64,000 bases of DNA, taken from NCBI GenBank assembly GCA_050949165.1, contig JBMNFF010000003.1, positions 235,081 through 299,080 on the forward strand, written 5' to 3'. The notes under the pieces are model-generated. The model worked only from the letters and a program-made list of their open reading frames with translations. It did not search any database and was not told the DNA's origin. Shown in pieces: positions 15,623 through 36,807 of this stretch. The stretch is from Bacillota bacterium (lineage in GTDB: Bacteria > Bacillota > Proteinivoracia > UBA4975). Every line of letters begins with the position of its first letter. The first letter of the stretch is position 1. Both the position numbers and the translations under genes were made by a program.

Positions 15623-15707
15623 TAATTGGAACCCCCTCATATATTATATATGGTATCATTATTGTCCTATCAGGGCTGGACTTTGTCAACCCAAATTTAA
15701 TAATTAA

Positions 15708-15741
15708 AAAGAAGCCGATAAGGAAAATGCTATCGGCTTCT
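15708..15741. terminator. Hairpin at the GC-rich/AT-rich junction
   Basis: AAGAAGCCGATA-(10 nt)-TATCGGCTTCTT, a perfect 12-bp stem flanked by A/T runs. Confidence 0.6.
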
Positions 15742-15749
15742 TGTTCTAA

Positions 15750-16376
15750 TTATCGCTTATTGAGCATTTTGTCAATTATTTTCTCTGCCCTTGCAGGATT
15801 AAATACCCCACAATGACACATCCCGGCAAGTTTTTCCGCCGCTTGACTAGATGTTAAACGCCCTTTTTCCACTTTGGTGACCAAATCTTTGATTAAGGAA
15901 AATGCTACCATGCCATGACCGCACATTGTACTTATTTCCAGCACCTCATCCTCGGGAAGAAGCTCTGTCCGGCCAAAAATGCCCAGTGAATGTTCAACAG
16001 TGTGGGGTTCAATTCCCGCCTTGTGGCAGCATTCCCTGACCTGTTCAACTAGTCCTGATACAACTATTGAAGCTCCTAAATCAGCTTGGCGCAGTTCATT
16101 GAGAACTTCTGCGACAGTATTCTCATCTGTAAAGACGGCATGAACTATTGAGTTATCCCTATACCCTTCTGCGATTGCCTCCATGCCGACTCCAAATTGG
16201 TTTCCAGTCTTCATGTCGCCAAAACTAACCGGGTTATATTTTAAGACAATGTCAGCAAACTGTTTAAATAGAGGGGCTGTACCCTTTGCGTTGACTGTCT
16301 GAGCGGTAATCGCAAAGACCACATAATCATTAGCTAAGTTTTCCTGGGTTCCTTTCCGGTGCAATGTGTGTGTCAT
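15750..16376 (-). CDS. Uncharacterised protein with C-terminal Cys motifs (last gene of the catabolic operon)
   Basis: 208 aa with MCGHGMV and MCHCGVFNP motifs. No family recognised. Its start lies 2 bp from the stop of the upstream gene. Confidence 0.6.
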   Translation of the reverse strand: MTHTLHRKGTQENLANDYVVFAITAQTVNAKGTAPLFKQFADIVLKYNPVSFGDMKTGNQFGVGMEAIAEGYRDNSIVHAVFTDENTVAEVLNELRQADLGASIVVSGLVEQVRECCHKAGIEPHTVEHSLGIFGRTELLPEDEVLEISTMCGHGMVAFSLIKDLVTKVEKGRLTSSQAAEKLAGMCHCGVFNPARAEKIIDKMLNKR

Positions 16377-16378
16377 TT

Positions 16379-17098
16379 CTATTCCTCCTTAGCAAGAGGC
16401 CGTCCTAGGCCAACGTTTGTTTTGCCGTTAAGAGAGCATCTAAACCCAGCTTTATTAGCCAGCTCGACGGCGGGATTGCGGCCGTCCGGCTCAAGCCTAC
16501 AAGCCAAATCAAGGCTGAAGACAGTGCTGATTTCAGTGCTTACATCGCGTATTACTTCTAAGGCAGGGACAACCTTATCTTGCGGGAGGTCAAATTCAAT
16601 TATAGCTGACAGAACTCGCTCATTTAGCACATCGTCTCTCAGTTTTCCAGTCGACTTATCTGTCATTAAACTTGTAACCGGATTATAAGGTTCAAAGTGG
16701 ATTCCCAAGGGGGCTAGTGCCATTGCCACCTTTTCCACATCGGCAAAGGTAGTGCTTGTCCCTGGTCGCCCCATTTCAATTGCGATGCCAGCTTGTCCCC
16801 TCTTGAAACGTCCGGTTACTTCATTGGTCTTCATTTCTTCCGTTCCTCTGCCGGGAACACCGGTATCCGGATGACTGATTAAGGGATTGGAAAATTGATT
16901 GCGGATGGTTCTATACTCATCTAACTCCTGCATCTGTAAGGAATCAGTAGGACAAACCTTAGCATTTCTGCAGATTTCACATTCGACGCACTTGTCTAAG
17001 TCAATTGTCACCGATTTGTCTTCTGCTACGTAAATAGCCTGGACTGGGCAATAGGGAATACATTTCCTGCACTTTATACAAGTATCTTTAATAATCAT
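16379..17098 (-). CDS. 4Fe-4S dicluster ferredoxin domain fused to an uncharacterised domain of about 175 aa
   Basis: CIKCRKCIPYCP and CVECEICRNAKVCP motifs in the first 60 aa. The remainder is not recognisable. Confidence 0.7.
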   Translation of the reverse strand: MIIKDTCIKCRKCIPYCPVQAIYVAEDKSVTIDLDKCVECEICRNAKVCPTDSLQMQELDEYRTIRNQFSNPLISHPDTGVPGRGTEEMKTNEVTGRFKRGQAGIAIEMGRPGTSTTFADVEKVAMALAPLGIHFEPYNPVTSLMTDKSTGKLRDDVLNERVLSAIIEFDLPQDKVVPALEVIRDVSTEISTVFSLDLACRLEPDGRNPAVELANKAGFRCSLNGKTNVGLGRPLAKEE

Positions 17099-17115
17099 AT
17101 TGATTACCTCCTACC

Positions 17116-18426
17116 CTAAAATGTTTGAACCACACCTGATTTAATAACCTTGTATGGCCATGCCGTAAAAATTACATCTTTGTAGGGCGAATAATCTACT
17201 GCTGACGGAATTTCGTCTGGATCAACTAGCCTTTTAATCCCCGTATCCATAATCACTGCATCAGCATCGCTACCAATTTGCAGTGTACCTTTCTGAGGGT
17301 ATAGATTAAATAGCTTAGCGGATTCAGTGCTACTAATCCTAACAACGTCTTCCAGCCTTAGGCCACGTTTATGGACGCCCTCGGTGAAAAGGATCGGTAA
17401 GATGTAAGCATTGCCGGGGAGGCCAGCTAAGCCTTCCCAGAGATCTTGCTTGTTTTCCCGGCGCCAGGGGTTATGATCTGAACCCATAATTACTGGGCGG
17501 CCGGAAAGAATGGCTTCCCATAACTTGTCCTGATCCTGCTGCTTTCTGATAGGAGGACTGACCTTACCCAAACTTCCCAGCCCAGAGTCTGTAGTCAGGG
17601 CAAGGTAGTGAGGGCAGGTTTCCAAGATTACATCATCCCCGGCTTCAACGATTAAGTCTGTGGCATCAGCAGAACTGACATGAGCAATGCACAGTTTGCA
17701 TCCTACTTTTTTAGCCAGGTAAATTACCTTGGCTACAGCTTCCCCCTCAACAATTGCTGGGCGTGTAGCTTCCCATATTCCCATATCATGGCGGGATCCG
17801 TCATAAAATTTACCCATGTAGTAGTCAATCATCTCCGGGTTCTCCGCATGGACAATAGGCAGAGCATTGTACTGCTTTAGCTTACTGAATGCCTCTAGAA
17901 GTTGGCCGTCATCCAAGCTGCTAAGCCCACCCAGTTTTAGAGCCTCTTCACCTTTATACGGAAGAAAAATCTTGAAAGACCGCAATCCCAATTCAACATA
18001 CTTGTCTATTTCAGAAAGGTGCAGGTCATTCATCAAGGAGCCATGATAGACCATATCAACCCTGCTATGCTCCTTAGCCATTCTAACCAGACCCGGCAGT
18101 ACCGCACCCATGGATTCTTGAGAAAAAATATAGTTCACCACGCTGGTAATTCCGCCATACAGAGCAGATGCACTTTCAGACTTGTAATATTCTTCCCTAC
18201 TAAATAAACGGGGCTGACCAGGACCGGGCATCTGACCGATGTGAGAATGGCTGTCGATGCCACCCGGCAACACATATCTACCCTGGGCATCGACTATCTT
18301 CTTAGCTGCCACATCTGAATTGCGTCGGGCAAGGTTGACGATCTTCCCGTTCTTAACCCATATATCACCTTCATAAATCCCAAAGGACTCAACGATCTTG
18401 CCATTTTTGATTGCCAGGTCTATCAA
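17116..18426 (-). CDS. Cyclic amidohydrolase (hydantoinase/dihydropyrimidinase/allantoinase superfamily)
   Basis: Beta-sandwich N-terminus followed by LPGGIDSHSH, the metal-binding HxH motif. Length of 436 aa fits the family. Confidence 0.8.
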   Translation of the reverse strand: MIDLAIKNGKIVESFGIYEGDIWVKNGKIVNLARRNSDVAAKKIVDAQGRYVLPGGIDSHSHIGQMPGPGQPRLFSREEYYKSESASALYGGITSVVNYIFSQESMGAVLPGLVRMAKEHSRVDMVYHGSLMNDLHLSEIDKYVELGLRSFKIFLPYKGEEALKLGGLSSLDDGQLLEAFSKLKQYNALPIVHAENPEMIDYYMGKFYDGSRHDMGIWEATRPAIVEGEAVAKVIYLAKKVGCKLCIAHVSSADATDLIVEAGDDVILETCPHYLALTTDSGLGSLGKVSPPIRKQQDQDKLWEAILSGRPVIMGSDHNPWRRENKQDLWEGLAGLPGNAYILPILFTEGVHKRGLRLEDVVRISSTESAKLFNLYPQKGTLQIGSDADAVIMDTGIKRLVDPDEIPSAVDYSPYKDVIFTAWPYKVIKSGVVQTF

Positions 18427-18446
18427 ATATATCCACCTCCAGATTC

Positions 18447-19532
18447 CTATTGTTCGTCATCAATAAATTCGAGGCGAATTCCCGACAGGTTATTGACTAA
18501 ACTAGCCAAGAGAGATACCGCGTCCACAACATCATTAATATCCACTACTTCGCCAGGGGAATGAGCGTACCTCCGGGGAATTGAGACAAAACCCGTGGGA
18601 ATCCCCCTGCCGCTGGTATGAATAGCCGCAGCATCAGTGGTCCAATAACCTACTTCAGCAGAGAGCTGAAGGTGTACTTTGGCTCTTTCAGCAGCTTCCT
18701 GTATCGCGGCTTTTACTGCAGGGTGAATAATAGTCCCCACATACGCGGTTTGCACGCCTTCAATTAATTGAAGAACTGGTCCATCACCGATAGCAAACTT
18801 ATTTCGTCCAGGTTCAATATCGTCGGCAGGAACAGTGTCCAACGCGACGGCAAAATTTGGCATGATCCCCGCGGCAACCATAGCCGCACCGCTCATATTT
18901 GTCTCTTCCCTTACTGAGATCACAACATAGACGTCCCCAGCAGGTGTATCCTTCATTTCCCGCAATAACTCTAGCAAAATGGCGCAACCTACCCTGTCAT
19001 CAATGGCTCGGCCGCATAACCTATCGGAAATGCCAAGCTCTGTAAGTTCGCCGGCAAAGGAAACGGGGGAACCGATATCTATCCCAAGCCTCCGTACTTC
19101 TTCAGGAGAGGCAGCTCCAACATCAATATGCAGCTGATTTATTGGTGTTACTTTACCCTGCTCACCGGGGAGCTCCAGGTGAGCAGGTTTTGCCCCAATC
19201 ACTCCAGGGACTTCACCAACCCAAACCTTGGTGGCGGGCAGCACAGTCTCACTGACAAAGCCGATTTTCCTCATCCGCAAAAGGCCATTGGGCAAAACTT
19301 CGTTTACCACGCCACCGACTTCGTCGGCATGAGCAACCAACATAACGCTTGGGCCTATTCCCAAACCATTCTTCTTGGCAACGACATTGCCAAATACATC
19401 TACACTAATCTCGTCGGCATATTTTGCTAACAATCGCTTCATTTCGCGGACCACCTGTTGCTCGTAACCCGAAACTCCACGAATTGAGCAGAGGTCCTTT
19501 AGCGTTTGAACCAGTCTCCCCTTATCTACCAT
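18447..19532 (-). CDS. M42-family metallohydrolase (FrvX/glutamyl aminopeptidase-like)
   Basis: VSGYE, HADEVG, DDRVGC, REET and RYAHSPGE blocks in M42 order. Confidence 0.8.
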   Translation of the reverse strand: MVDKGRLVQTLKDLCSIRGVSGYEQQVVREMKRLLAKYADEISVDVFGNVVAKKNGLGIGPSVMLVAHADEVGGVVNEVLPNGLLRMRKIGFVSETVLPATKVWVGEVPGVIGAKPAHLELPGEQGKVTPINQLHIDVGAASPEEVRRLGIDIGSPVSFAGELTELGISDRLCGRAIDDRVGCAILLELLREMKDTPAGDVYVVISVREETNMSGAAMVAAGIMPNFAVALDTVPADDIEPGRNKFAIGDGPVLQLIEGVQTAYVGTIIHPAVKAAIQEAAERAKVHLQLSAEVGYWTTDAAAIHTSGRGIPTGFVSIPRRYAHSPGEVVDINDVVDAVSLLASLVNNLSGIRLEFIDDEQ

Positions 19533-20993
19533 TTAACTCTCCTCAATGGCAACCAAGTCATTGTCGGTATACTTTTCCCCGAAAGCGCGCAAAGCCTTTT
19601 CGAAGCAACCCTGGGGAGCTCGTACAATTCCTGCACCCACTAGTCCGTGGCCCGGCTCCTTATGGGCGATTCCAGTATTGATAATGGGAAGAATCCCTGT
19701 ATCGGCGACTCTAACAATGTCTATCCCGGTAGGGGAACCGGCAAAAGAAAGACCCGGCAACCTGTAGTTATTGTTTTTGCCAAGAGTAATTTGGTACATT
19801 TCCCTGGTCATTGCCAAAGCATCTTCTGGGGTCCCGCCAACAAACTGAACGATGGCCGGCGATGATCCCATAACAAAGGCTCCGATTCCCCCGGTTTCGG
19901 TAATTGCGCTATCCCCAATATCCGGGTTTGCATCTTCTTCAGAATAACCTGGGAAGTACAGACCATGGGCAACTGAAGCAGTTTCGGTAAACCACTGGTT
20001 TCCCATTCCGCTTACCTGGATTCCAACCTCTACTCCATTACGGGCCATTGCAGTAACCATTGAGCAGTAGGGAATGTCCTGAGCAGCGACCAAGCAAGCT
20101 TTGCAGGCGGCCATGGCCAGGTTAAGGAAGAAATGCTCGTGATCGCCTAAGAACTTAACAACCTGTCTTACTTTATTTTGAGGGAAGTCGCTGTCTACCA
20201 ATACTGGCGTAGCAATTTTAAAGAATAAATTAGTGACGGCGATGTCCCTGTTATGACATTCATCACCCATCTGTAGAGCCTGGGCGATCATGTTCTTTAG
20301 ATCGATACCGTCCAGTTTTTCAATAACAAGTTTCATGGCCGGTGCGAGGGTCTCTTGCATCCAGATTAAGCGCTCAATAACGTCCTTATCATATGCTCCA
20401 AACCTGAGGGTTCGACCCCATCCTTCATTCATCGTTGAGAAGGCTAGATTGCCGAAGGTTTTATTTTTTACCACCCAAACAGGCATTGAGGGAGATATAA
20501 CTCCCGCCATTGGCCCCACAGCATTTTTCGAATGACATGGCGCATATTTGATTTTTCCGGATCCTGCTAAGGCCACTGCTTCATCCGCGTTTTTTGCTCG
20601 CCCTTCGTAAATCAGGGCGCCAATAACCGCACCTTTCATGGGGCCGCACATATTCTCCCACTCAACAGGGGGGCCAGCGTGTAAAATGGTATTCTCGGTC
20701 ATACCGGGTAGCACTTCTAACGCTGGCTTGACGTCTACTAGTACCGGCTCAGATTCCAACATCCTTGACAGGGCGGTCTGATTAGCATGCTGGACCTTTT
20801 CAGCTACCGTCCCAGGTGTAGAATCAGGTAACAAAGTAGCAACAATCCTTGCTAATTCTGAGTTGCCCCATCCAGGTGGTTTCCAATCAATTAAGTGCAT
20901 ATCTGTGTGTTGTGCAATTGTTTCGCCAATACTTTTTAGCCCTAAATTCAGCACCTTGGGGCGGTTGGTCAGTACACCCTGGAATTTGCTCAT
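19533..20993 (-). CDS. DUF1116 (YlbE-like) protein, FdrA partner
   Basis: Size and position immediately after fdrA, as for E. coli ylbE. ATG at 20993 follows AGGTGG, and the fdrA stop is 1 nt upstream. Confidence 0.7.
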   Translation of the reverse strand: MSKFQGVLTNRPKVLNLGLKSIGETIAQHTDMHLIDWKPPGWGNSELARIVATLLPDSTPGTVAEKVQHANQTALSRMLESEPVLVDVKPALEVLPGMTENTILHAGPPVEWENMCGPMKGAVIGALIYEGRAKNADEAVALAGSGKIKYAPCHSKNAVGPMAGVISPSMPVWVVKNKTFGNLAFSTMNEGWGRTLRFGAYDKDVIERLIWMQETLAPAMKLVIEKLDGIDLKNMIAQALQMGDECHNRDIAVTNLFFKIATPVLVDSDFPQNKVRQVVKFLGDHEHFFLNLAMAACKACLVAAQDIPYCSMVTAMARNGVEVGIQVSGMGNQWFTETASVAHGLYFPGYSEEDANPDIGDSAITETGGIGAFVMGSSPAIVQFVGGTPEDALAMTREMYQITLGKNNNYRLPGLSFAGSPTGIDIVRVADTGILPIINTGIAHKEPGHGLVGAGIVRAPQGCFEKALRAFGEKYTDNDLVAIEES

Positions 20994-20994
20994 A

Positions 20995-22488
20995 TTACTT
21001 TCCACCTTTCCCAGCCCCATCAACTAGTTTAAGGGCAGTCATAACGGCATCGTAGTTGTTGTTACAAACTACCGCTCCGGCTGTCGATAGTTTTTCTGCT
21101 TGGGAAGCGTAACCTTGGACATCTAAATCAGTACCCAGGAGGTTAATCACAACCCTTGGCCCTTCAGGCCGACAAAATTCCCTTATATAGGGAGCTAGCT
21201 CCGAGGCCGGATTCGAGTGGGCTCCATATCCAAGGACAACATCCAACAGGATAACGCCAACATCTGGATTGGACGCCTCTTTCTTAAACATTGCCAACCT
21301 GTCGGTCAAATCGATAATGGGATGAGGTTTCCCTCTAGTGAATTCATCACTGCCCATATCCAGTATCAAATGCATATTGTCCGATTCCCGGCGCATAAAT
21401 TCTGCATTTGTCGCAATACTGCCTAATTCTTTACTGAGAAGCATATAGGCCTCATTTGCCAAAGTACCTCCGGAAAATAGCCCGCGAATATACCTGCCCG
21501 GGGCCTTGGCGTCGCTATCCCCATAGAAACAAGACTCCGCCTCAATACCAGTCGCCAAGCTAGCTGCTTCTGCTAAAGTGTTGGCAAACTGAACCTTTCC
21601 ATACCTCTGTCCAGGAGCCATCCCCTGAAGACAGGCAATGACCTTTTTGGTACACTGAGCAAACTCATTTAAAATATGATCTGCCACTCTCTGAGACGGG
21701 AATTTAGAAACCAGAATAATAGTATCGGTACTATCATCGGCCTCCAGTGCGGCCAAGGCCGATCGGGTGCTTAGACCTTCGACAGCATCAGTCAGGTCCC
21801 GTCCACCGGTCCCGATGATATGGGAGATTCCACTACCCTGTTTATGAATCTGAGTCATAATTTCCTGAATACCGGTGCCAGAGGAACCCACGATACCAAT
21901 GCTCCCCCGACGGACCTGATTTACAAAGCCGAAGGGGACACCGTCAATGTAAGCTGTGCCACAGTCAGGACCCATTAGGATTAATCCCTTGCGCCATGCG
22001 TACTTTTTCAGTTGGATCTCGTCCATTAGCGATACGTTATCACTGAACAAAAAAACATTTAAGTTACTTTTTAATGCCTTTAAGGCTTCTGCAGCTGCAA
22101 ATTCACCCGGGACGGATATTGCCACCATATTTACTTCAGGATGCTCTTGAACCGCCATCCTAATACTACTATATTTCAATTTAGCCCCTGGCTGAGAAGA
22201 GTTGGTATCAAGATCAGGAGCAGCCATAAGCTTGTCCACAAGTTCAACGGCTTTGCTAGCAACTGATTTACTTTCTGCGTCAAAGGCTATTATTAAATCA
22301 CTGGGTTTAGCATCCTGCACCTCTGGCAAGAACAGTCCCGATTCCTTCAAGACATTCTTATTCTGGGGAGTGCCCATTACCACTGCAGCTTGATTTATTC
22401 CAGGCAGTTTGCTGACGTGGGACGATATGCGCATTAATGCAACTGAATCCTGGTACATGTTAGATTTGATTAATACTTGTACTGCCAC
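20995..22488 (-). CDS. fdrA: FdrA-family protein (succinyl-CoA-synthetase-alpha-like fold)
   Basis: N-terminus MYQDSVALMRIS and CoA-ligase-like Gly-rich segments (IGIVGSSGTGIQE, IIGTGGRD). Confidence 0.8.
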   Translation of the reverse strand: MAVQVLIKSNMYQDSVALMRISSHVSKLPGINQAAVVMGTPQNKNVLKESGLFLPEVQDAKPSDLIIAFDAESKSVASKAVELVDKLMAAPDLDTNSSQPGAKLKYSSIRMAVQEHPEVNMVAISVPGEFAAAEALKALKSNLNVFLFSDNVSLMDEIQLKKYAWRKGLILMGPDCGTAYIDGVPFGFVNQVRRGSIGIVGSSGTGIQEIMTQIHKQGSGISHIIGTGGRDLTDAVEGLSTRSALAALEADDSTDTIILVSKFPSQRVADHILNEFAQCTKKVIACLQGMAPGQRYGKVQFANTLAEAASLATGIEAESCFYGDSDAKAPGRYIRGLFSGGTLANEAYMLLSKELGSIATNAEFMRRESDNMHLILDMGSDEFTRGKPHPIIDLTDRLAMFKKEASNPDVGVILLDVVLGYGAHSNPASELAPYIREFCRPEGPRVVINLLGTDLDVQGYASQAEKLSTAGAVVCNNNYDAVMTALKLVDGAGKGGK

Positions 22489-22514
22489 TACTATTCACCA
22501 CGCTTATAATTAAT

Positions 22515-23321
22515 TTACGCTAGCGAGTACTGGAATGGAATAATCCCAGTAAAAACTAGCGTGTACCATGCAACAACGGCAACAGCACATATGATACAGA
22601 TTAGTCTACATGTAGATGTCATCGATATCTCATCAACATAAACCCTGTAGGGGTGCGCACCAAATCCTCTGCTCTCCATTGAATGAGTAGTTACCGATGC
22701 ACCCCGCAAACTTCTAATTAACAGCGGAACCGTAAAACGCTTAATGTTCTCCAGTTTACCTCTTATTCCTGCTTTATTCCCAACACCTCGGACTGAGTGT
22801 GCTTCATTTATACACCTTGCCTCCTTTTCAATAAGAGGTATAATTCTTAACGCTATGAAGAATGCGTAAGGAATTTTATAGGGAATATTAAGTATCTGTA
22901 CAAATGATACTACGAGGTCCCTTGGATGCGTTGTGCGGATAAAAATGAAAGAGGCGAGAAATATAGTGAAGATTCTTAGGGAAACAGCTGCCGCGTAGTC
23001 AACTACTTCGTAGTATATTATCTTATTTCCAATGCGAAGTAGTTCAATATCGCCTTGTATTTTTAGCATCCACGTTTGGATTAAGAAAAACGCAACACAG
23101 GCTAAAATTAACCACTTAGTTGCCCGCCAAACATCTGAAAACGATAATCTAGCAAAAACAAATGCACAAATTAAGGTAAAGAGCAAAAAAGCAAATTGAA
23201 CTGCCCCAATGAAGCTACCAAATGCCAGAAAAGATATTGCAAGCAACACTACAGTCTTAGTTACAGCGTCCATGTGATGAATAAAGGAATTGCCCTTCCG
23301 ATACTGAAATATTACTTCCAT
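22515..23321 (-). CDS. ECF transporter T component (EcfT/CbiQ/YkoC-like)
   Basis: 268-aa polytopic protein directly downstream of the duplicated ATPase, with CbiQ-type Arg-rich coupling-helix segments. Confidence 0.8.
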   Translation of the reverse strand: MEVIFQYRKGNSFIHHMDAVTKTVVLLAISFLAFGSFIGAVQFAFLLFTLICAFVFARLSFSDVWRATKWLILACVAFFLIQTWMLKIQGDIELLRIGNKIIYYEVVDYAAAVSLRIFTIFLASFIFIRTTHPRDLVVSFVQILNIPYKIPYAFFIALRIIPLIEKEARCINEAHSVRGVGNKAGIRGKLENIKRFTVPLLIRSLRGASVTTHSMESRGFGAHPYRVYVDEISMTSTCRLICIICAVAVVAWYTLVFTGIIPFQYSLA

Positions 23322-23323
23322 TC

Positions 23324-25066: not shown

Positions 25067-25134
25067 GGATTTCTCTCCTCAACAAACTTAATAACAGGAA
25101 CAGGGATGAGAGAAAAAATTAGATTATTTAATAA

Positions 25135-25743: not shown

Positions 25744-25781
25744 GTGTTTCCCCTCCTATTCCCTCATCCCTGAACTAAACT

Positions 25782-26855: not shown

Positions 26856-26972
26856 GTGTATCCTCCTTTATTCCTGTTAAATAACTTGAACTACTAACCA
26901 ACTTATAATGCTCCCCGTTGTCAAGACACAAAATTTATTTTGTAAGTTGTCCTCCTTTCTACATTTGAATTT

Positions 26973-27839
26973 TCAGGCAGCCATGCTGCCATTGTAAACT
27001 TCCGCGGGGCAAAAACCATTAATCGATGAATGGGGCCGGTAGGTGTTGTATGTGTGTATGTAATCGTTGAGGGCGATCCTGAGCTCTCTGGGGCTATTAA
27101 ATTCATTGATGTAAACGCAATCATATTTGATTGTCCGGAACACCCTTTCTGTCCTTACGTTGTCTAGGGCTTGTCCCTTTCCATCCATCGAGATTTTAAT
27201 CCCGTTTGCCTCGAGCAGGCTCAGATAGTCTGGGTTGGTGAAATGTGACCCCTGATCACTGTTCATTATCTCTGGCCGCCTGGTCCTAAAGGCGCGTTTT
27301 AAGCAGGTCATGACAAAGCTCTTCTCCAAGGTGCTGGATAGCTCGAAGTCTACTATGCACCGGCTATACCAGTCGATTATCACAAATAAGTACATAAAGC
27401 CATTTTTAATGGGGACATAGGTGATATCTACCCCCCACACCTGGTCTGCACGGTTGATGTCCAGGTTTCTTAGAAGATATGGCTGAACATATTGGGCGTG
27501 GTACCGCTTGCTCAGATTTGGCTTAGGAAAAATGGTGTAGATACCCATGGCGCGCATCATCCGGCGCACCTTTTTGCGGTTAATCTTTAGGTGGTCATCC
27601 CTCCTCAGAATCCTCGTGATAGTGCGATACCCCCATGTAGGATAGGCAGTATGGAGCTCGTCGATCCTTCGCATTATATGCAAATCCTCAGCACTAATGG
27701 TTTTAGGGCGAGCCTGGCGATAAAAGCTGGTACGGTTAATCCCTAGGAGCTCTGCCTGGCGCTTGATGGTAATAGGGAAGTCGGTATCAACGAGACTTTT
27801 TCTTCCAGCTGGGTCCGATGATTTCCTCAGATTTTTTTT
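26973..27839 (-). CDS. IS3-family OrfB (rve integrase-core DDE), expressed by recoding from orfA
   Basis: The reading frame opens at the T9/A9 run. Motifs: DQVWGVDITY, DWYSR, NSDQGSHF, and the E in NVRTERVFRTIK. Confidence 0.8.
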   Translation of the reverse strand, partial: KKNLRKSSDPAGRKSLVDTDFPITIKRQAELLGINRTSFYRQARPKTISAEDLHIMRRIDELHTAYPTWGYRTITRILRRDDHLKINRKKVRRMMRAMGIYTIFPKPNLSKRYHAQYVQPYLLRNLDINRADQVWGVDITYVPIKNGFMYLFVIIDWYSRCIVDFELSSTLEKSFVMTCLKRAFRTRRPEIMNSDQGSHFTNPDYLSLLEANGIKISMDGKGQALDNVRTERVFRTIKYDCVYINEFNSPRELRIALNDYIHTYNTYRPHSSINGFCPAEVYNGSMAA

Positions 27840-28149
27840 TCAGCCAGTCAACCTCATAGGTGAGTTGACCGACCTTACGCTCAAGCTGGGCTACCATATT
27901 CTCCTTTTCTATTAGCTCCTTTTCGGCTGCGGAGGGTCCTTTCTTAAACACTCCTGGAGCTCGTTCTAGGAACTCATTTTTCCAGCGTCCGATGACTACA
28001 GGGCTTATGCCATACTTAGCCCCAATCTCGCTAATTGTAGAGGCCTCTTGGAGCACCTCCAAAACTACCTTGCATTTGAACTCTGCTGAATACTGATTTC
28101 GCTTTTTCATGTCTCTAGTATAACTTACTTTTGAAATTTCGTGTCTCAC
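27787..28149 (-). CDS. IS3-family OrfA (HTH/leucine-zipper transposase subunit)
   Basis: 120 aa, YSAEFKCKVVLEVL...ISEIGAKYGISPVVIGRWKNEF, typical IS3/IS911 OrfA. Confidence 0.85.
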   Translation of the reverse strand: MRHEISKVSYTRDMKKRNQYSAEFKCKVVLEVLQEASTISEIGAKYGISPVVIGRWKNEFLERAPGVFKKGPSAAEKELIEKENMVAQLERKVGQLTYEVDWLKKKSEEIIGPSWKKKSR

Positions 28150-28181
28150 CCTATGGGAGCATTATAACTGACCTCCTTCAT

Positions 28182-28216
28182 AAAAAAATTGGCTTACTTC
28201 TTTAAGTAAACCAATT
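28182..28216 (-). terminator. Rho-independent terminator of the pucR-like gene
   Basis: On the minus strand: AATTGGTTTACTT-AAAG-AAGTAAGCCAATT followed by a U7 run. Confidence 0.55.
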
Positions 28217-28272
28217 AGCTAAATAGCCTATTAAAACCTTTATGACCTTTTCACAAAGCAAAGCCCAATAAG

Positions 28273-29952
28273 TTATAATGTTTTTGCTTCCGACAATAAA
28301 TCCCCCAATATTATTGCTAGCTGAAGATTAAACCTATCATTGCTATCCCCAAGACTTAATCCTGTTATCTCCTGAATTTTATTAAGCCGGTAAACAATAG
28401 TATTGTAATGGGAAAAAATGGTCTTTGCTACCTTGCTGACGTTACCGTTACATTGAAAATATACCCGTATAGTATTGGTAAGTTCGGAGTTTGTAGCTTG
28501 GTCATGTTGTATTAGGGGCATATAGATTTCGTTGACAATCTTATTTGCTTCTTTTAAATTACTACTGTTCAGAAGCCTTAACACTCCTAAATCATCGTAG
28601 CATAGTATTCCATTTTTACTGTCAAACTGCCTTATTACCTCAAGGGCCTTCTTGGCTTCAAGATAGCTCTTAGGAATTTGGGTTACAGGTTCCCTGAACC
28701 TGCCTATCCCGGCGGAACAAGTATGCTTAGTAATTCTACCAAACATCTTTCGTACTCTGCCTGCAACATCCATAGCTAATTTATGGTTCTCCCGATTTCC
28801 AGAGTCATGTTCTGCTCTAAGCAAAAGAACAAAACGGCCGCCCCTTTCACCAATAATAAAATAAGTACAGCAACCGCTGGCGACCTGTTCAATACACTCG
28901 TAAAGGCGGTTTTTCAAGTAGGATATACTCGACTTGCTTTTTGTATCCTGTTGCCAGAGTTTCTGATAGTCGTCAATTTCAAATACGATTAGCATAAAAT
29001 GATACCTTAACTCTAGCCCCACAAGCTCTCCCCGGGAAACTAGCTCAATTTCAGACGTAATTTTGCCGCTTACCCAATCAAAGATAAACTCATTTTTATA
29101 TTTTTTTTCCACCTCGGTTAATGCAAATTGGTTTATCAAAGTTAAAGCAGCGACGGTAGCGGCCTGCTCCATGGCAATGAAATCTGTTTCGTGCAAAACT
29201 CGATTAATCTCAATTATTATGATGGTTCCATGCCACTTGCCGGAAATATGAATAGGGTATTTAATAATGTTAAATTTCTTGCCATCGAGGGTTAAAATTT
29301 CTTTGGACATTGAGCTTGAGTAATATCCTTGACCTGTTTTCATTACTTCAATCAAATCGTCCCTGACATAAGCGACCTGACTTAACGGAGCCTCGCCAAG
29401 AATTTTTGAATCCGTTCCCACAATAAAAACCACATTATCGGTAATTTCGAATAAACTTTCGCAAATGGCAGGAATACCTCCGCCTTCCAAAGCCACTTTC
29501 ATTAGCTTTTGGTGAGCTGCAATTGAACGCCTTAAAATAGCCGCCTGCCTGTTTACTAAAGCACTATACACCGTTTCTAATATTATGGGGTGAGAAAGAT
29601 GCTGAGGCATTTCTAATAGGGGAAAATCATTCACGTCTGCAGCATCTATCATCACCTGAGGAACTTCTTCCAGATATCGTTTAGTTTTTATAACCAACCC
29701 AGCAAGGCCTTTTTCTGTTAAAGCAGGAATTAAACTTTCTTGCGCCACGGGATCATCCTTGATTGAAAAGGCTGTAGTTAACAATAACTGCCCTTCCTTA
29801 ACCCAAGGTATAATATCCGGCACTTCCATAACATTAACACTTAGTATAGGCCGGTCTAAGCCATTTTCTCCACCAAGTACTATTAGATCTTTCAATGAAT
29901 CCATCTGCAGGGCTTTTCTTACTGTGATCCCGAGAAGTCTACGGCTTTCCAT
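28273..29952 (-). CDS. PucR-family transcriptional regulator
   Basis: 559 aa. N-terminal PucR-like purine-catabolism regulator domain and C-terminal PucR HTH (NVSKVAKTIFSHYNTIVYRLNKIQEITG). Confidence 0.85.
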   Translation of the reverse strand: MESRRLLGITVRKALQMDSLKDLIVLGGENGLDRPILSVNVMEVPDIIPWVKEGQLLLTTAFSIKDDPVAQESLIPALTEKGLAGLVIKTKRYLEEVPQVMIDAADVNDFPLLEMPQHLSHPIILETVYSALVNRQAAILRRSIAAHQKLMKVALEGGGIPAICESLFEITDNVVFIVGTDSKILGEAPLSQVAYVRDDLIEVMKTGQGYYSSSMSKEILTLDGKKFNIIKYPIHISGKWHGTIIIIEINRVLHETDFIAMEQAATVAALTLINQFALTEVEKKYKNEFIFDWVSGKITSEIELVSRGELVGLELRYHFMLIVFEIDDYQKLWQQDTKSKSSISYLKNRLYECIEQVASGCCTYFIIGERGGRFVLLLRAEHDSGNRENHKLAMDVAGRVRKMFGRITKHTCSAGIGRFREPVTQIPKSYLEAKKALEVIRQFDSKNGILCYDDLGVLRLLNSSNLKEANKIVNEIYMPLIQHDQATNSELTNTIRVYFQCNGNVSKVAKTIFSHYNTIVYRLNKIQEITGLSLGDSNDRFNLQLAIILGDLLSEAKTL

Positions 29953-30978
29953 GAATAAGCCTCCCTATATTAAAGTTAGTGTCAAGTTTTGTTCGCAAAA
30001 TCCATCTGCACGCCGTAAATGGATTATGCCACCTGCATTCGATCTTCCTTTGTTAACTGGATAATATCTGGCTTTATATAACATCTCCCTGACGACCAAT
30101 CCTCGGCATATTCAATCAGGTATGTCGTAACAAGACGGATATAAGAATCCATGCTTGGAAAGATGCCAACAACAGATGTCCGCCGACGAATCTCCCTGTT
30201 AAGCCGCTCTAACATGTTCGTTGAGGATATCTTCCTAGCATCTAGCCGGTTAAAATTGTAGAACTGCAAAGAGTCTTCCAAGCCAGATTCAAGAACTTCT
30301 ACTGCTCCAGGGTATTGGTTTTCGTAGGTGTCCATCAATGCATTGGCGTATTTCTTAGCACTTTCAAGATCCGGCTGCAACCAGATTTGCTTCAACCTAT
30401 CAGCAAAAGCTGCTTTGCCTTTGGCGGGCAGGTGAGCCAAGATGTTACGCATGAAGTGCACTTTACAACGCTGCCAACTGCAACCGATAAATGACGTCTG
30501 AACAGCTTTTACCAACCCTTTGTGAGCATCGGACACTACCAGCCATGTATCTTTGAGGCCCCTGTCCTTTAGCCTCTGGAACAGCTCCCTGTAGGTAGCC
30601 TCAGACTCATCCTGCATCGGCTCAATGGCTAATATGTCGCGCCTGCCGCTTTCATCAAGCCCGACAACTACAAGGACTGCCATGTTCTTCACGTGCCGGT
30701 CGTACCTAATCTTCTCGTATAATGCATCAACCCATAGGACAGGATACGTCTTTTTCAACGGACGTTTCCGGAAAGCTTCCACCTGATCGTTTAATTCCCT
30801 TGTGATTTGAGAAACCTGGCTTCGGGAGATTGAGTCGATGCCAAGGCTCTTGGCCAGCTTCTCAATCTTGCGGGTGGAAACTCCGTTAACATAGGCCTCC
30901 TGGATAACATTCATAAGGGCAACTTCTGATCGTTTCTTTTCAGTTACGAAGAAGGGAATGTTATAATGCTCCCATAGG

Positions 30979-31341
30979 GTGAGACACGAAATTTCAAAAG
31001 TAAGTTATACTAGAGACATGAAAAAGCGAAATCAGTATTCAGCAGAGTTCAAATGCAAGGTAGTTTTGGAGGTGCTCCAAGAGGCCTCTACAATTAGCGA
31101 GATTGGGGCTAAGTATGGCATAAGCCCTGTAGTCATCGGACGCTGGAAAAATGAGTTCCTAGAACGAGCTCCAGGAGTGTTTAAGAAAGGACCCTCCGCA
31201 GCCGAAAAGGAGCTAATAGAAAAGGAGAATATGGTAGCCCAGCTTGAGCGTAAGGTCGGTCAACTCACCTATGAGGTTGACTGGCTGAAAAAAAAATCTG
31301 AGGAAATCATCGGACCCAGCTGGAAGAAAAAGTCTCGTTGA
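30979..31341 (+). CDS. IS3-family OrfA
   Basis: Translation identical to 27787-28149. Confidence 0.85.
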   Translation: MRHEISKVSYTRDMKKRNQYSAEFKCKVVLEVLQEASTISEIGAKYGISPVVIGRWKNEFLERAPGVFKKGPSAAEKELIEKENMVAQLERKVGQLTYEVDWLKKKSEEIIGPSWKKKSR

Positions 31342-32155
31342 TACCGACTTCCCTATTACCATCAAGCGCCAGGCAGAGCTCCTAGGGATTAACCGTACCA
31401 GCTTTTATCGCCAGGCTCGCCCTAAAACCATTAGTGCTGAGGATTTGCATATAATGCGAAGGATCGACGAGCTCCATACTGCCTATCCTACATGGGGGTA
31501 TCGCACTATCACGAGGATTCTGAGGAGGGATGACCACCTAAAGATTAACCGCAAAAAGGTGCGCCGGATGATGCGCGCCATGGGTATCTACACCATTTTT
31601 CCTAAGCCAAATCTGAGCAAGCGGTACCACGCCCAATATGTTCAGCCATATCTTCTAAGAAACCTGGACATCAACCGTGCAGACCAGGTGTGGGGGGTAG
31701 ATATCACCTATGTCCCCATTAAAAATGGCTTTATGTACTTATTTGTGATAATCGACTGGTATAGCCGGTGCATAGTAGACTTCGAGCTATCCAGCACCTT
31801 GGAGAAGAGCTTTGTCATGACCTGCTTAAAACGCGCCTTTAGGACCAGGCGGCCAGAGATAATGAACAGTGATCAGGGGTCACATTTCACCAACCCAGAC
31901 TATCTGAGCCTGCTCGAGGCAAACGGGATTAAAATCTCGATGGATGGAAAGGGACAAGCCCTAGACAACGTAAGGACAGAAAGGGTGTTCCGGACAATCA
32001 AATATGATTGCGTTTACATCAATGAATTTAATAGCCCCAGAGAGCTCAGGATCGCCCTCAATGATTACATACACACATACAACACCTACCGGCCCCATTC
32101 ATCGATTAATGGTTTTTGCCCCGCGGAAGTTTACAATGGCAGCATGGCTGCCTGA
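31289..32155 (+). CDS. IS3-family OrfB (rve DDE core), +1 frame relative to orfA
   Basis: The frame opens at 31289, right at the A9 run (31288-31296). The upstream part reads ...FPITIKRQAELLGINRTSFYRQ, an HTH typical of OrfB N-termini. Confidence 0.8.
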   Translation, partial: KKNLRKSSDPAGRKSLVDTDFPITIKRQAELLGINRTSFYRQARPKTISAEDLHIMRRIDELHTAYPTWGYRTITRILRRDDHLKINRKKVRRMMRAMGIYTIFPKPNLSKRYHAQYVQPYLLRNLDINRADQVWGVDITYVPIKNGFMYLFVIIDWYSRCIVDFELSSTLEKSFVMTCLKRAFRTRRPEIMNSDQGSHFTNPDYLSLLEANGIKISMDGKGQALDNVRTERVFRTIKYDCVYINEFNSPRELRIALNDYIHTYNTYRPHSSINGFCPAEVYNGSMAA

Positions 32156-32645
32156 AAATTCAAATGTAGAAAGGAGGACAACTTACAAAATAAATTTTGT
32201 GTCTTGACAACGGGGAGCATTATATGTAGCCGCCTTTGCGCAACTTAGGGACAAACAAATACAGGGTCCCCATTCTAGTGTCGAACCGGCGGACACGGTA
32301 CCCGGAGCGGTATCCGGACCTTTCTGAGTTACGCTCTGACTTGGAAGCATTGACCTTAGATGTTACTTCGGCTTCCATAAGTTGCTCGCACAGCCACTTC
32401 AGCATCGAGAGCATTGGGTCTTCTTCTGACATGAATTGCAATAGCATTTTCTCGAAGTTTCCAGTAGAATAAGAGTAAGCCATCGGTAACAACTCCTTTT
32501 GGTTTGCTCGTCACATACCATTTCGGGGTTGCCGATGGTTTTTCCTTTTTACTTTTGCGAACTTAATTGTACACTATCTATATTAAATCAGCAATATCAC
32601 ATATGATAATACTTCAACGCGTTAAACATTAAATCCTCTATAATA

Positions 32646-33581
32646 TTACTCCTTGACTATCCTAGTCCCATCTAGTCCCTGAAGGGCCAAGTTTAACTTA
32701 TCCAGAGAAGTAATAATTGCGGTGCCGCTGGCGTTTTTTACGAAATTTACTGCAGCGCGGATTTTGGGCCCCATGCTCCCAATGCCAAACTGACCTTCTT
32801 CTAAATATATTATGGCGTCCTTCACTGATAGACAATCTAAATTCTTTTGCTCAGGCGCGCCATAATTCAAAGCAACCTTATTTACATCGGTAAGGATTAA
32901 AAAAAAGTCTGCATCTATATCGCAAGCCAACCGACTGGCAACAAAGTCTTTATCTATTACCGCTTCTATACCTTCAAGCTCCCCATTTTTTTCGATAACA
33001 GGGATGCCGCCTCCACCACCCGCGACAACCAGCCCACCAGAATTCGTTAGCACCTTGATCATTTCTAATTCAATAATTTCAATTGGTTCAGGTGAAGGAA
33101 CTATTCGCCGCCAGCCTCGGCCGCTATCTTCCATCCAAGACTCTCCGTCAGCTATCTTTTGTTCGGCATGATCTTTATCAAAAAAAGGGCCAATTGGCTT
33201 GGTTGGATGGTCAAAAGCCAAGTCGTTTGAATCAACTCTTACCCGGGTTATTATAGTTACAACCGGTATATCTATCCCAATTTTATTGATGTGGTTATCC
33301 AGGCAATTTTGGATCATGTACCCGATTTGCCCTTGAGTTTGGGCACCGCACACATCCAGCGGTTGCGCAGGAACTTGTCCCTTAGCAGCCTCATGCTGTA
33401 TAAGGACATTCCCTACTTGAGGACCGTTGCCGTGGGTAACAATTACTCTATGCCCTTCTCTCAATAGGTTGACTATAGAGTTTGCTGTTAGCTCTATGTT
33501 GGCAATCTGCTCTTGATAAGTTCCCTTTTGCCCAGGGCGAAGAATGGCATTACCCCCTAATGCCACAACAATTAACGACAT
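32646..33581 (-). CDS. arcC: Carbamate kinase
   Basis: VVALGGNAI, VTHGNGPQVG, and a length of 311 aa. Confidence 0.9.
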   Translation of the reverse strand: MSLIVVALGGNAILRPGQKGTYQEQIANIELTANSIVNLLREGHRVIVTHGNGPQVGNVLIQHEAAKGQVPAQPLDVCGAQTQGQIGYMIQNCLDNHINKIGIDIPVVTIITRVRVDSNDLAFDHPTKPIGPFFDKDHAEQKIADGESWMEDSGRGWRRIVPSPEPIEIIELEMIKVLTNSGGLVVAGGGGGIPVIEKNGELEGIEAVIDKDFVASRLACDIDADFFLILTDVNKVALNYGAPEQKNLDCLSVKDAIIYLEEGQFGIGSMGPKIRAAVNFVKNASGTAIITSLDKLNLALQGLDGTRIVKE

Positions 33582-33603
33582 AAGTCATCACTCCTTATTA
33601 TTT

Positions 33604-33758
33604 GGGGCTGTCGCAAAACGAGGTATTCATGTATATTACCTCGCATAATCGCTGTGGGTGGGGGCCGATAGGCCCCTACAGCTTGGCGGGTTTTCCCGCG
33701 GCGCACAAGATTGACCAACCGAGGCAATATGGCAGAATGTCAGTTTTGCGACGGCCCC
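33604..33758. mobile_element. 155-bp MITE with terminal inverted repeats matching the IS1182 element end
   Basis: GGGGCTGTCGCAAAAC ... GTTTTGCGACGGCCCC. The first 17 nt are identical to the IS1182 end at 4153/36802. No coding capacity. Confidence 0.65.
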
Positions 33759-33760
33759 TT

Positions 33761-34597
33761 TTAAACATCCATTGTCCTTGAAATATTTAAGTAGTGCGAA
33801 TGAGCGCCGATAAGAACGCCAAGAAGCAGATCACTTCCAGAAGTTGAACCAACACCATTAATCACCCTTCGACAAGCAGTTTCCAGCGCTGCCGGATTGT
33901 CCAACTGTACCAAGACATTGTCGAGGAGCTCCTGGACAAGTCCCAAACATGCAAAATAAATAGAAGTTGCGCTAAGAATTGTGCTTTCAGCCAAGGCTTT
34001 AGCTATCAGATTGTCACACCACTCCATATTTAAAACACCAAGTCTTCGCATTAGGGCGCAGTAACCTGTTAGAATATCGTCACCTGCCGGGGTAAACCCA
34101 AAACCAAGCCCGATTAGATTGTACCCTGCTTGGGGATTATTAATAAGCGACCGCGCAGCCAATGCAACTTTTTGCGTGATAAGCTCCCCTTTGTCCAAAC
34201 CTAAAAAGGTTAAGCAAGCCCCACTCCCCCACGATAAAGTTCTCTGCAGAACCTCAATAGTGGTATCAACCAATAATGGGGTGCCCGAAAATTCATCATT
34301 CGACGGACTGAAGTAAATTGTTGTATCTTGAAAGAAGCATCTTCCTTCCCTGACCTCGACAATATCGCCAGGGTGTAACCTAATCCTCTCCATGGCCCCG
34401 GGAGGCAGAATAACTCTATTGGGAGCAGAATCTAGACCCGCGTCAACAAGGCTTAAACAAAGCCCTTCTGGCATTCGTACATTAATAGCACGGCTAAAAA
34501 CAGTATCAACGACTCCAGGTCCCTTTAATAAGGTACCCGGAGCACAGCCGCATCGTTCTGCCCAAAGGTTTATGACCATCACCCCTCTCCTACTCAA
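33761..34597 (-). CDS. DUF2877 (YlbF-like) protein
   Basis: Size of about 270 aa, GLGFGFTPAGDDILTG segment, and genomic association with fdrA, DUF1116 and carbamate kinase. Confidence 0.65.
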   Translation of the reverse strand: MSRRGVMVINLWAERCGCAPGTLLKGPGVVDTVFSRAINVRMPEGLCLSLVDAGLDSAPNRVILPPGAMERIRLHPGDIVEVREGRCFFQDTTIYFSPSNDEFSGTPLLVDTTIEVLQRTLSWGSGACLTFLGLDKGELITQKVALAARSLINNPQAGYNLIGLGFGFTPAGDDILTGYCALMRRLGVLNMEWCDNLIAKALAESTILSATSIYFACLGLVQELLDNVLVQLDNPAALETACRRVINGVGSTSGSDLLLGVLIGAHSHYLNISRTMDV

Positions 34598-34752
34598 GAC
34601 TATTTATATCTACTTGACTTGTTCTCCTTTGTTAACCATCGCCAAAAGATCTAATAACTGTTTAACAATAATCACATCATGAATCGGTAATAACCAAATT
34701 CAATGGATATGTTATAATTAGGTCAGGTATTTTTTGAAACGGAGGAGAGGAC

Positions 34753-34938: not shown

Positions 34939-34940
34939 AA

Positions 34941-36804: not shown

Positions 36805-36807
36805 TAT

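Follow-up and report, generated by a model that had tools for sequence, protein, structure and literature searches.

A conserved gene island joining an AllFGH-type carbamoyltransferase to amidohydrolases and an iron-sulfur protein pair: a candidate ATP-yielding route of cyclic ureide breakdown in a Bacillota bacterium

The stretch of DNA analyzed here comprises 64,000 nucleotides (nt) of a Bacillota bacterium (contig JBMNFF010000003.1 of assembly GCA_050949165.1, positions 235,081 to 299,080) and will henceforth be referred to as the window. It carries an island of 13 metabolic, transport and regulatory genes which an original prediction, made from the sequence alone, had interpreted as an ATP-yielding ureide fermentation module. 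The island encodes the subunits AllF, AllG and AllH of an AllFGH-type carbamoyltransferase, a carbamate kinase (CK), a zinc-dependent dehydrogenase of the medium-chain dehydrogenase/reductase (MDR) type (Zn-ADH), a cyclic amidohydrolase (Hyd), an M42-family hydrolase, a three-gene energy-coupling factor (ECF) importer, a PucR-family regulator, a [4Fe-4S] fusion protein (Fer4X) and a Cys/His protein (UnkC) (Table 1). A six-frame listing of open reading frames (ORFs), combined with Pfam and NCBIfam scans, reproduced the predicted gene list, coordinates and transcription order. All 13 genes that do not belong to insertion sequences (IS) are on the minus strand, as had been predicted, and to these are added one IS3 copy and the IS256 fragments, which have the same orientation. 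The genes indeed span 15750-34597, but on the right side the island extends beyond this, up to an IS1182-like transposase.

Table 1. Genes, hairpins and mobile elements of the island, with positions in the window.
Feature	Position	Strand	Length	Family match or remark
AllH (DUF2877) subunit, AllFGH-type carbamoyltransferase	33761-34597	-	278 aa	PF11392
Carbamate kinase (CK)	32646-33581	-	311 aa	TIGR00746
PucR-family transcriptional regulator	28273-29952	-	559 aa	PF07905, GGDEF_2, HTH_30
Zn-dependent MDR dehydrogenase (Zn-ADH), operon gene 1	25782-26855	-	357 aa	ADH_N, ADH_zinc_N
ECF S component, YkoE family	25135-25743	-	202 aa	PF09819
ECF A-A ATPase, fused	23324-25066	-	580 aa	Two ABC_tran; TIGR04520 and TIGR04521 over cut-offs
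ECF T component	22515-23321	-	268 aa	PF02361 CbiQ
AllF (FdrA) subunit	20995-22488	-	497 aa	NF004760; CoA_binding, Ligase_CoA
AllG (DUF1116) subunit	19533-21023	-	496 aa	PF06545
M42-family binuclear metallohydrolase	18447-19532	-	361 aa	PF05343
Cyclic amidohydrolase (Hyd), hydantoinase/dihydropyrimidinase/allantoinase superfamily	17116-18426	-	436 aa	Amidohydro_1
2x[4Fe-4S] fusion protein (Fer4X)	16379-17098	-	239 aa	Fer4 families, residues 2-58 only
Cys/His protein (UnkC), final operon gene	15750-16376	-	208 aa	No family match
Terminator-like hairpin after PucR	28187-28216	-		13-bp stem and T run
Strong terminator-like hairpin, operon end and left edge of island	15709-15742	-		13-bp stem, 5 GC pairs, T run
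IS3-family element copy A, PucR/Zn-ADH intergenic region	26901-28168	-	1268 nt	Domain matches
IS3-family element copy B, inside IS256 element	30960-32227	+		orfA 30979-31341, orfB 31445-32155; HTH_Tnp_1, rve
IS256-family (Mutator) transposase, N-terminal fragment	32220-32492	-	87-90 aa	PF00872; product of 87 aa called in identical contig L163
IS256-family transposase, C-terminal part	30024-30914	-	296 aa	PF00872 profile positions 105-378 of 379
IS1182-like DDE transposase, right edge of low-GC island	35029-36633	+		DUF772, DDE_Tnp_1, DDE_Tnp_1_6

The GC content of the island is 0.44, compared with 0.59 in the rest of the window, and this gap of 15 points marks it as foreign DNA, in all likelihood acquired horizontally. 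To its left lie housekeeping genes (SpoIID, RlmL and an HMA ATPase) and to its right genes for DHH, MurB, a CDF transporter and Nnr. The ten genes from Zn-ADH to UnkC overlap or are spaced by 0-68 nt, and the strong hairpin starts 8 nt past the UnkC stop codon, an arrangement predicted to constitute a single 10-gene transcription unit. A near-identical copy of the island is found on a 55.9-kb metagenome contig.

The four assignments at the core of the original prediction, FdrA, DUF1116, DUF2877 and carbamate kinase, were upheld, as each protein passes the curated cut-off of its profile hidden Markov model (HMM). AllF scores 482.7 bits with NF004760 (cut-off 433), AllG 313.9 bits with PF06545 (cut-off 27; E 6.6e-94) and AllH 63.1 bits with PF11392 (cut-off 25; E 4.5e-17). 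CK, whose gene adjoins that of AllH, reaches 396.5 bits with the arcC equivalog TIGR00746 (cut-off 358), a family of catabolic carbamate kinases. The current Pfam names of DUF1116 and DUF2877 are AllG and AllH, respectively. Identity to the Escherichia coli proteins amounts to 39% for AllF, 47% for AllG, 30% over the C-terminal 110 aa for AllH and 38% for CK (with AllK/YbcF). The assignment of these subunits to oxamate transcarbamylase in the original prediction proved accurate: purified E. coli AllF-AllG-AllH is an oxamic transcarbamylase catalyzing the reaction oxalurate + Pi <-> oxamate + carbamoyl phosphate (PMC11326118). In E. coli, allFGH is co-transcribed with the gene of the catabolic carbamate kinase AllK (PMC11326118, PMC9843812), and this neighboring kinase has been characterized as well (PMC9843812).

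Residues 24-64 of the AllG of the window match residues 513-554 at the C terminus of E. coli AllF (33% identity, E 0.02). A segment of about 40 residues that ends AllF in E. coli is found, in the island, at the N terminus of AllG, and several metagenomic AllGs likewise begin with an extension of about 40 residues resembling the AllF C terminus. Movement of a segment between the two ORFs would fit a tight AllF-AllG complex.

In a neighbor-joining tree of 88 AllG sequences (100 bootstraps), the 11 AllGs linked to M42/Hyd/Fer4X genes, including that of the window, group together in a single clade with a bootstrap of 100/100. This clade excludes E. coli AllG and every plain locus, and none of the 77 other AllGs carries the linked genes. 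The AllG of the window is placed outside the orthologous group of its characterized E. coli counterpart, and the linked AllGs appear to mark an AllFGH subfamily of its own, one that evolved together with Hyd, M42, Zn-ADH and Fer4X-UnkC.

Gene-neighborhood mining, proposed in the original prediction as a way to find co-occurrence of the set, was carried out with searches anchored on UnkC, AllG and Hyd, and recovered the set: Zn-ADH, AllF, AllG, M42, Hyd, Fer4X and UnkC recur in at least 10 other contigs of Bacillota and Anaerolineae, with their order shuffled. Retention of a set while its order is shuffled is a classical signature of functional coupling, and the genes are best regarded as a functional unit, conserved beyond chance. 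An origin as an IS-made fusion of unrelated genes was rejected on the same conservation. Among 80 metagenome loci found with AllG as anchor, 76 have a plain AllF-AllG pair, mostly followed by CK; the remaining four, which are nearest to the window, also carry M42, Hyd or Fer4X-UnkC. Hyd belongs to a small subfamily of about 30 clusters (52-79% identity).

The arrangement most like that of the window, PucR-ZnADH-ECF-(SDR)-AllF-AllG-M42-Hyd-Fer4X-UnkC, where SDR stands for a short-chain dehydrogenase/reductase, occurs in loci L168 and L170 and, with M42 absent, in L171. L173 reads Fer4X-UnkC-ZnADH-ECF-Hyd-PucR-ECF-SDR-AllF-AllG-M42, and L085 SDR-AllF-AllG-M42-Hyd-CK. In L174, nucleoside-type ABC permeases-Fer4X-UnkC-ZnADH-SDR-AllF-AllG-M42-AllH-Hyd-dihydropyrimidinase-DeoC-CK make up one operon. 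L167, from the cultured Thermanaeromonas sp. C210 (GCA_013167955.1), has the order ECF T-PfkB-SIS-BtpA-DeoC-SDR-AllF-AllG-M42-AllH-Hyd; L083, ZnADH-ECF-PfkB-PCC-SIS-BtpA-SDR-AllF-AllG-Hyd-FmdA/AmdA amidase-Fer4X-UnkC-DeoC; and L039 (Anaerolineaceae), SDR-ZnADH-AllF-Fer4X-UnkC-AllG-M42-Hyd-FAH-uridine phosphorylase, preceded by further genes. L084 carries PucR, then AllF-AllG-M42-AllH-ferredoxin-CODH-like-Fer4X-UnkC-Pyr_redox_2 (CODH, carbon monoxide dehydrogenase). AllH and/or CK are thus inside the operon in L174, L167, L084 and L085 (CK in L174 and L085). With the core linked to the other island genes in this way, by the single operon of L174 and by the AllG clade, an ATP-yielding ureide module is still the best reading of the island. 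Moreover, the relatives carry a uridine phosphorylase equivalog (L039; 281 bits, cut-off 280), DeoC (292 bits, cut-off 117) and BmpA/Nup-type nucleoside ABC transporters, neighbors that tend to favor a ureide from a pyrimidine or nucleoside over allantoin.

Hyd carries the metal-ligand set of the cyclic amidohydrolase superfamily (HxH, carbamylated Lys, His, His, Asp), intact on motif inspection as His60, His62, Lys152, His193, His249 and Asp317. Its scores are under every NCBIfam equivalog cut-off: 280 bits against 393.25 for dihydropyrimidinase/D-hydantoinase (TIGR02033) and 256.7 against 357.85 for allantoinase (TIGR03178), with dihydroorotase and ErtD lower still. The closest solved structure is the L-hydantoinase 1GKR (E 2e-69), followed by D-hydantoinases and then allantoinases. 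In L174, L169 and L172 a second amidohydrolase is located beside Hyd; it passes the dihydropyrimidinase cut-off, with scores, taken in L174 and L169, of 499 and 468 bits, respectively. Because this neighbor qualifies as dihydropyrimidinase, Hyd itself is probably a different enzyme that works in the same neighborhood.

The M42 protein matches PF05343 (E 1.4e-73) and retains the metal-ligand motifs AHADEVG, DDRVGC, REETN, ALDTV and YAHSP (His68, Asp179, Glu209/210, Asp232 and His324). TET aminopeptidases are its nearest structures, and it stays under every NCBIfam equivalog cut-off, those of the named aminopeptidases (lysyl-, glutamyl-, FrvX, YpdE) included, the best score with these being 172 against 700 bits. 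Its gene directly follows that of AllG in eight clusters. Because L083 has an FmdA/AmdA-family small-amide amidase and no M42, we propose that M42 is a putative amidase or decarbamoylase; the exchange hints at hydrolysis of the amide released by AllFGH, which in E. coli is oxamate, or of a second ureido group.

Zn-ADH has L-threonine 3-dehydrogenases and sorbitol dehydrogenase as nearest solved structures, enzymes that oxidize a secondary alcohol next to a heteroatom-bearing carbon. Cys40/His62/Glu63 and the structural-zinc cysteines 95, 98, 101 and 109 are kept, and orthologues in related clusters are 63-80% identical. By analogy with AllD acting on ureidoglycolate, such chemistry would turn an N-(1-hydroxyalkyl)urea into an N-acyl-urea.

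The importer is a complete ECF system with a YkoE-family S component, a T component and an A-A ATPase. The S component family, PF09819, imports the pyrimidine hydroxymethylpyrimidine (HMP), a further pointer towards a pyrimidine. No Rfam family, including the thiamine pyrophosphate (TPP) riboswitch, reaches its gathering score anywhere in the window, which argues that this YkoE-type importer is not a thiamine-precursor system. As for regulation, the PucR protein is 61% identical to the PucR encoded directly upstream of Zn-ADH in L168 and L170 and probably controls the 10-gene operon. In the window, IS3 copy A is located between the two genes, and 45 nt separate its end from the Zn-ADH start codon. 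Since L168 and L170 have no IS at this place, copy A appears to be a recent intruder and PucR a member of the module. IS3 copy B, inverted relative to copy A, splits the IS256-family transposase gene. The inverted pair brackets PucR and the IS256 remnant, so that recombination between the copies would invert the regulator.

Fer4X has eight cysteines, which make up two CxxCxxCxxxC-type motifs at residues 7-49. The domain of about 180 residues that comes after them consists, in an AlphaFold2 (AF2) model (pLDDT 88), of two ferredoxin-fold ACT/PII-like repeats; Foldseek with this model gave no PDB fold match at E<1e-3. UnkC shows the invariant motifs MTHxLHR, TMCGHGM and CxCG, and its invariant residues include His3, His6, His79, Cys117, His125, Cys152, His154, Cys187 and Cys189. 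Its AF2 model (pLDDT 83) combines a PII-like N-terminal half with a helical C-terminal half. UnkC gave no sequence match in Pfam, NCBIfam or PDB, and Foldseek with the model gave no significant PDB fold match. A profile search of 1.8 billion representatives delineated a family of 823 representatives at 50% identity, spread over anaerobic bacteria and archaea and nearly all stand-alone proteins of 205-220 aa starting with MTHxLHR, with rare fusions only to further Fer4 domains. Attempts to assign a function to the two proteins by Pfam, NCBIfam, PDB sequence, AF2 with Foldseek and profile searches yielded only generic ferredoxin and weak ACT/PII-like likeness. The label 'DUF362', which some databases attach to Fer4X homologues and which led to the LarA clan, was dropped, as the protein of the window has no PF04015 match at E<0.01.

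The view of these proteins as two additional redox/unknown extras of the island had to be abandoned. In the UnkC-anchored search, Fer4X is encoded immediately upstream of UnkC in 79 of 79 genome loci, from Bacillota, Chloroflexota, Thermodesulfobacteriota, Acidobacteriota, NC10, Bathyarchaeia and others; most are without AllFG, and only two carry island genes as well. Other contexts include Tct/TRAP carboxylate transporters, aldehyde:ferredoxin oxidoreductase (AOR), a truncated CODH/prismane-like protein, a Pyr_redox_2 flavoprotein, Fer4_11 ferredoxins and Zn-ADHs. We conclude that Fer4X-UnkC is most plausibly an obligate-pair redox module recruited into the pathway. That it is so well conserved from one context to the next suggests that its role is a shared one and not catalysis on a particular substrate; electron transfer to or from a dehydrogenase is a possibility. 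In about 15 of the 79 genomes, the pair is located within about 4 kb of the truncated CODH/prismane-like protein (390-520 aa, far under the CooS cut-off) and the Pyr_redox_2 flavoprotein (around locus position 10000 in L018, L019, L024-L030, L033, L038, L041, L048 and L084); in L018 these two directly flank Fer4X-UnkC.

Taken together, we lean slightly towards the view that the island serves to break down a small cyclic ureide and to conserve energy from it, the ureide being more likely derived from a pyrimidine base or nucleoside than from allantoin. The ring proposed is hydantoin-like or (dihydro)pyrimidine-like. The ECF importer with its YkoE-type S component would take up the compound and Hyd would open the ring to a linear ureido acid. 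Zn-ADH would then oxidize the hydroxyl beside the ureido nitrogen, giving an N-acyl-urea in parallel with the conversion of ureidoglycolate to oxalurate. This product would be cleaved by AllF/AllG/AllH with phosphate to carbamoyl phosphate and an amide, after which CK would convert carbamoyl phosphate and ADP to ATP, NH3 and CO2. M42 would hydrolyze the remaining amide or a second ureido group, while Fer4X-UnkC would carry out or serve a redox step and the PucR-family regulator would govern the 10-gene operon. The analysis establishes which families the proteins belong to, how the operon is built, that the gene set is conserved and that the linked AllGs form a clade of their own; from the precedents of E. 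coli allB/allD/allFGHK and of HyuA-YgeW-YqeA-YgeY, we infer all chemical steps, their order and the substrate. A speculative candidate for the intermediate is a malonurate-type compound, which would stem from a pyrimidine ring and is the homologue of oxalurate with one more carbon.

A bolder version of this scheme, which we put forward only tentatively and think doubtful as a whole, is that of an undescribed anaerobic pyrimidine (nucleoside) or ureide route. The new AllFGH clade would phosphorolyze an N-acyl-urea other than oxalurate (e.g., malonurate/ureidomalonate, arising from ring opening and dehydrogenation), with ATP formed via CK. M42 would be a small-amide hydrolase and not a peptidase, and Fer4X-UnkC a new class of Fe-S enzyme or electron module.

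Several observations weigh against the catabolic scheme. AllH and CK are separated from the 10-gene operon by IS elements and PucR, and IS3 copy A may separate the operon from its native promoter and PucR site. In L039, L083, L168, L170 and L171 the sequenced stretch contains no AllH or CK, some of these contigs ending just upstream. The proteins of this clade are assigned from their sequences. Hyd, on its profile scores, belongs to no named family, which does not fix the type of ring, and Fer4X-UnkC, found mostly in unrelated contexts, could be a generic redox accessory. Finally, the window is without the dihydropyrimidinase and nucleoside genes of the relatives, and its substrate may differ from theirs; tblastn against the whole window found no PfkB, SIS, BtpA, DeoC, uridine phosphorylase, racemase, FmdA amidase or FAH.

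The best-surviving alternative, unlikely as we consider it, is a plain allantoin-to-oxamate pathway with non-orthologous replacements, in which Hyd would be the allantoinase, M42 the allantoate amidohydrolase and Zn-ADH the ureidoglycolate dehydrogenase, with AllFGH and CK acting as in E. coli. Allantoin degradation is the only pathway with a characterized AllFGH, and the E. coli locus shares with the island the three subunit families and CK, a cyclic amidohydrolase and a dehydrogenase nearby and the principle of substrate-level phosphorylation. Full-length Hyd shares 32% identity with E. coli AllB, and M42 also matches the M20 Pfam profile, the family in which the original prediction expected an allantoate amidohydrolase. 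In Bacillus, PucR-family regulators control purine and allantoin genes. In L169, moreover, a sister Hyd clade stands beside an Asp/Glu/hydantoin-racemase-family gene, tartronate-semialdehyde reductase, glycerate kinase and urease, a set resembling allantoin catabolism. On the other hand, Hyd is far below the allantoinase cut-off and nearer to hydantoinase structures, and tblastn with E. coli AllB, AllC, AllD and AllE found no AllC, AllD or AllE homologue in the whole window, Hyd being the only AllB match. The relatives carry pyrimidine-nucleoside genes and none for purines or allantoin. On these three grounds the one-to-one mapping onto the allantoin pathway considered in the original prediction does not hold. 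The separate AllG clade argues in the same direction. The island also has an ECF importer where E. coli has the allantoin transporter AllW, and adds M42, Zn-ADH and Fer4X-UnkC, the last of which an allantoin pathway would give no role.

It is very unlikely that AllF-AllG acts instead as a succinyl-CoA-synthetase-like, nucleoside diphosphate (NDP)-forming acyl-CoA synthetase conserving thioester energy, with AllH and CK as unrelated neighbors. AllF does have CoA_binding and Ligase_CoA domains and bears the NCBIfam name 'acyl-CoA synthetase FdrA', and the five related clusters listed above have AllF-AllG without AllH or CK in view. Yet the E. coli enzyme is a proven transcarbamylase, and AllH and/or CK occur within the operon in L174, L167, L084 and L085. 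In a MAFFT alignment, the phosphohistidine motif GHAGA of SucD aligns with (I/L)RGL(F/Y)SGGTLA, with no histidine in six of six AllFs, which argues against a classical NDP-forming acyl-CoA synthetase. The island contains no CoA-transferase or thioester-forming enzyme.

We give still less credence to the idea that the island is decaying or silent mobile DNA, in which IS insertions have uncoupled the operon from regulator and promoter and which has no function in its host. The four IS-derived segments in the island, the position of IS3 copy A just upstream of the first operon gene, the foreign GC content and a frameshifted CBS/ACT gene next to the operon would agree with decay. Against this, none of the 13 metabolic, transport and regulatory ORFs is shortened compared with its homologues in related clusters. 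The alignment with L001 shows zero differences over window positions 16000-26376, and identity to L163 is 99.95% over 18273-37167. The two IS3 copies, 1268 nt each, are 100% identical, so their insertion is recent, and a promoter-like site points outward from the IS end, although this last is weak evidence.

Equally improbable is a synthetic direction, in which CK would be the source of carbamoyl phosphate and AllFGH would use it on an amide to build an N-acyl-urea or cyclic ureide. Assays of the E. coli enzyme did follow the formation of oxalurate, and its reaction is reversible (PMC11326118), as are cyclic amidohydrolases, but importer, PucR-type catabolic regulator, amidases and nucleoside-catabolic neighbors (uridine phosphorylase, DeoC) all point to catabolism, and CK passes the cut-off of the catabolic arcC equivalog.

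Returning to the catabolic scheme, three known pathways other than that of allantoin come close to it. In the 2,8-dioxopurine (reductive uric acid) pathway, SsnA/HyuA open the ring, the carbamoyltransferase YgeW and the carbamate kinase YqeA have been shown to make ATP and YgeY is an M20 amidase (bioRxiv 10.1101/2025.04.24.650524; PMC12507026). It shares with the island a hydantoinase-type amidohydrolase, a carbamoyltransferase plus CK for ATP and a binuclear metallo-amidase for a second ureido group. In contrast, the carbamoyltransferase of the island is of the unrelated AllFGH type and not of the ornithine/aspartate transcarbamylase (OTC/ATC) fold, and its amidase is M42 and not M20. Pfam scans found no OTCace domain in any of the island ORFs of at least 115 aa, and the families of xanthine dehydrogenase, YgfK, SsnA and YgeX have no match among the island ORFs scanned.

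The hyu system of Arthrobacter aurescens (HyuH and HyuC) likewise pairs a ring-opening amidohydrolase with a metallo-amidase, and 1GKR, the structure nearest to Hyd, is HyuH. The hyu pathway is purely hydrolytic, with no carbamoyltransferase and no carbamate kinase, and its amidase HyuC, unlike that of the island, is M20. In the reductive pyrimidine (Pyd) pathway, PydA is dihydropyrimidine dehydrogenase, PydB dihydropyrimidinase and PydC beta-ureidopropionase (PMC7332683). Similarities are the true dihydropyrimidinase and uridine phosphorylase next to Hyd in relatives of the island, and Fe-S proteins in both. Decarbamoylation in the island would be phosphorolytic and ATP-yielding, whereas that of Pyd is hydrolytic, and the Hyd of the window is not a dihydropyrimidinase equivalog. 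Neither the island ORFs scanned nor the called genes of related loci include a PydA-like family.

Ureide catabolism with substrate-level phosphorylation through carbamoyl phosphate is already known. What appears to be new is that a distinct AllFGH clade is combined with an unnamed clade of Hyd, M42, Zn-ADH and Fer4X-UnkC; literature searches on the gene combination and on hydantoinase/dihydropyrimidinase with carbamate kinase in anaerobes returned no description of such a cluster. AllFGH was tied to a function in 2024, for oxalurate in E. coli only (PMC11326118). A sister clade in a different conserved gene set suggests a broader substrate range among N-acyl-ureas and ureides. Fermentation that gains ATP from carbamoyl phosphate may therefore be more general among anaerobic Bacillota and Chloroflexi than the known cases of arginine, allantoin and uric acid indicate. 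The cluster also provides candidates for missing enzymes of anaerobic nucleobase and ureide breakdown, and a first link to metabolism for a large Fe-S protein pair that occurs in many anaerobic phyla. As Thermanaeromonas sp. C210, one of the carriers, is in culture, these ideas are directly testable.

Some further observations concern the related loci. A trio of PfkB kinase, double-SIS (GlmS C-terminal-like) protein and BtpA/SgcQ TIM-barrel protein recurs with the Hyd clade and uridine phosphorylase (L167 510-3467; L169 373-3333; L083 4200-7596; L039 351-5806; L172 19999-21377). A possible task of the trio is to handle the sugar moiety of an N-glycoside; the literature searched gave no function for BtpA/SgcQ/SgcX. 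L169 additionally contains, at 18234-21377, an AllFG-less sister cluster with urease, tartronate-semialdehyde reductase and glycerate kinase. Its urease parallels the situation in enterobacteria, where urease-negative species rely on the transcarbamylase route (PMC11326118). A shared chromosomal origin with L173, suggested by an HMA-ATPase/ArsR pair that adjoins the cluster in both, was dismissed as coincidence, the pair being only 37% identical.

In the surroundings of the island, two IS1182-like copies at about 4151-6014 and about 34938-36800, with some 97.6% identity and apparently in inverted orientation, enclose the island and about 10 kb of chromosomal genes; the left copy corresponds to another low-GC patch, at 4-6 kb. 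Next to the operon on its downstream side, a CBS-ACT-CBS gene (14760-15640, minus strand) is an intact ORF of 239 aa in L001, while in the window it is spread over three reading frames, with 92 differences, 17 of them single-base insertions, over about 0.6 kb. This disruption could reflect a pseudogene or decay, a local assembly error or a recombination patch. To the right of the island, two tandem DUF4438 paralogues of 291 and 290 aa (41924-43687, plus strand) are found beside a divergent gene for a WYL/WCX-domain regulator (40825-41874).

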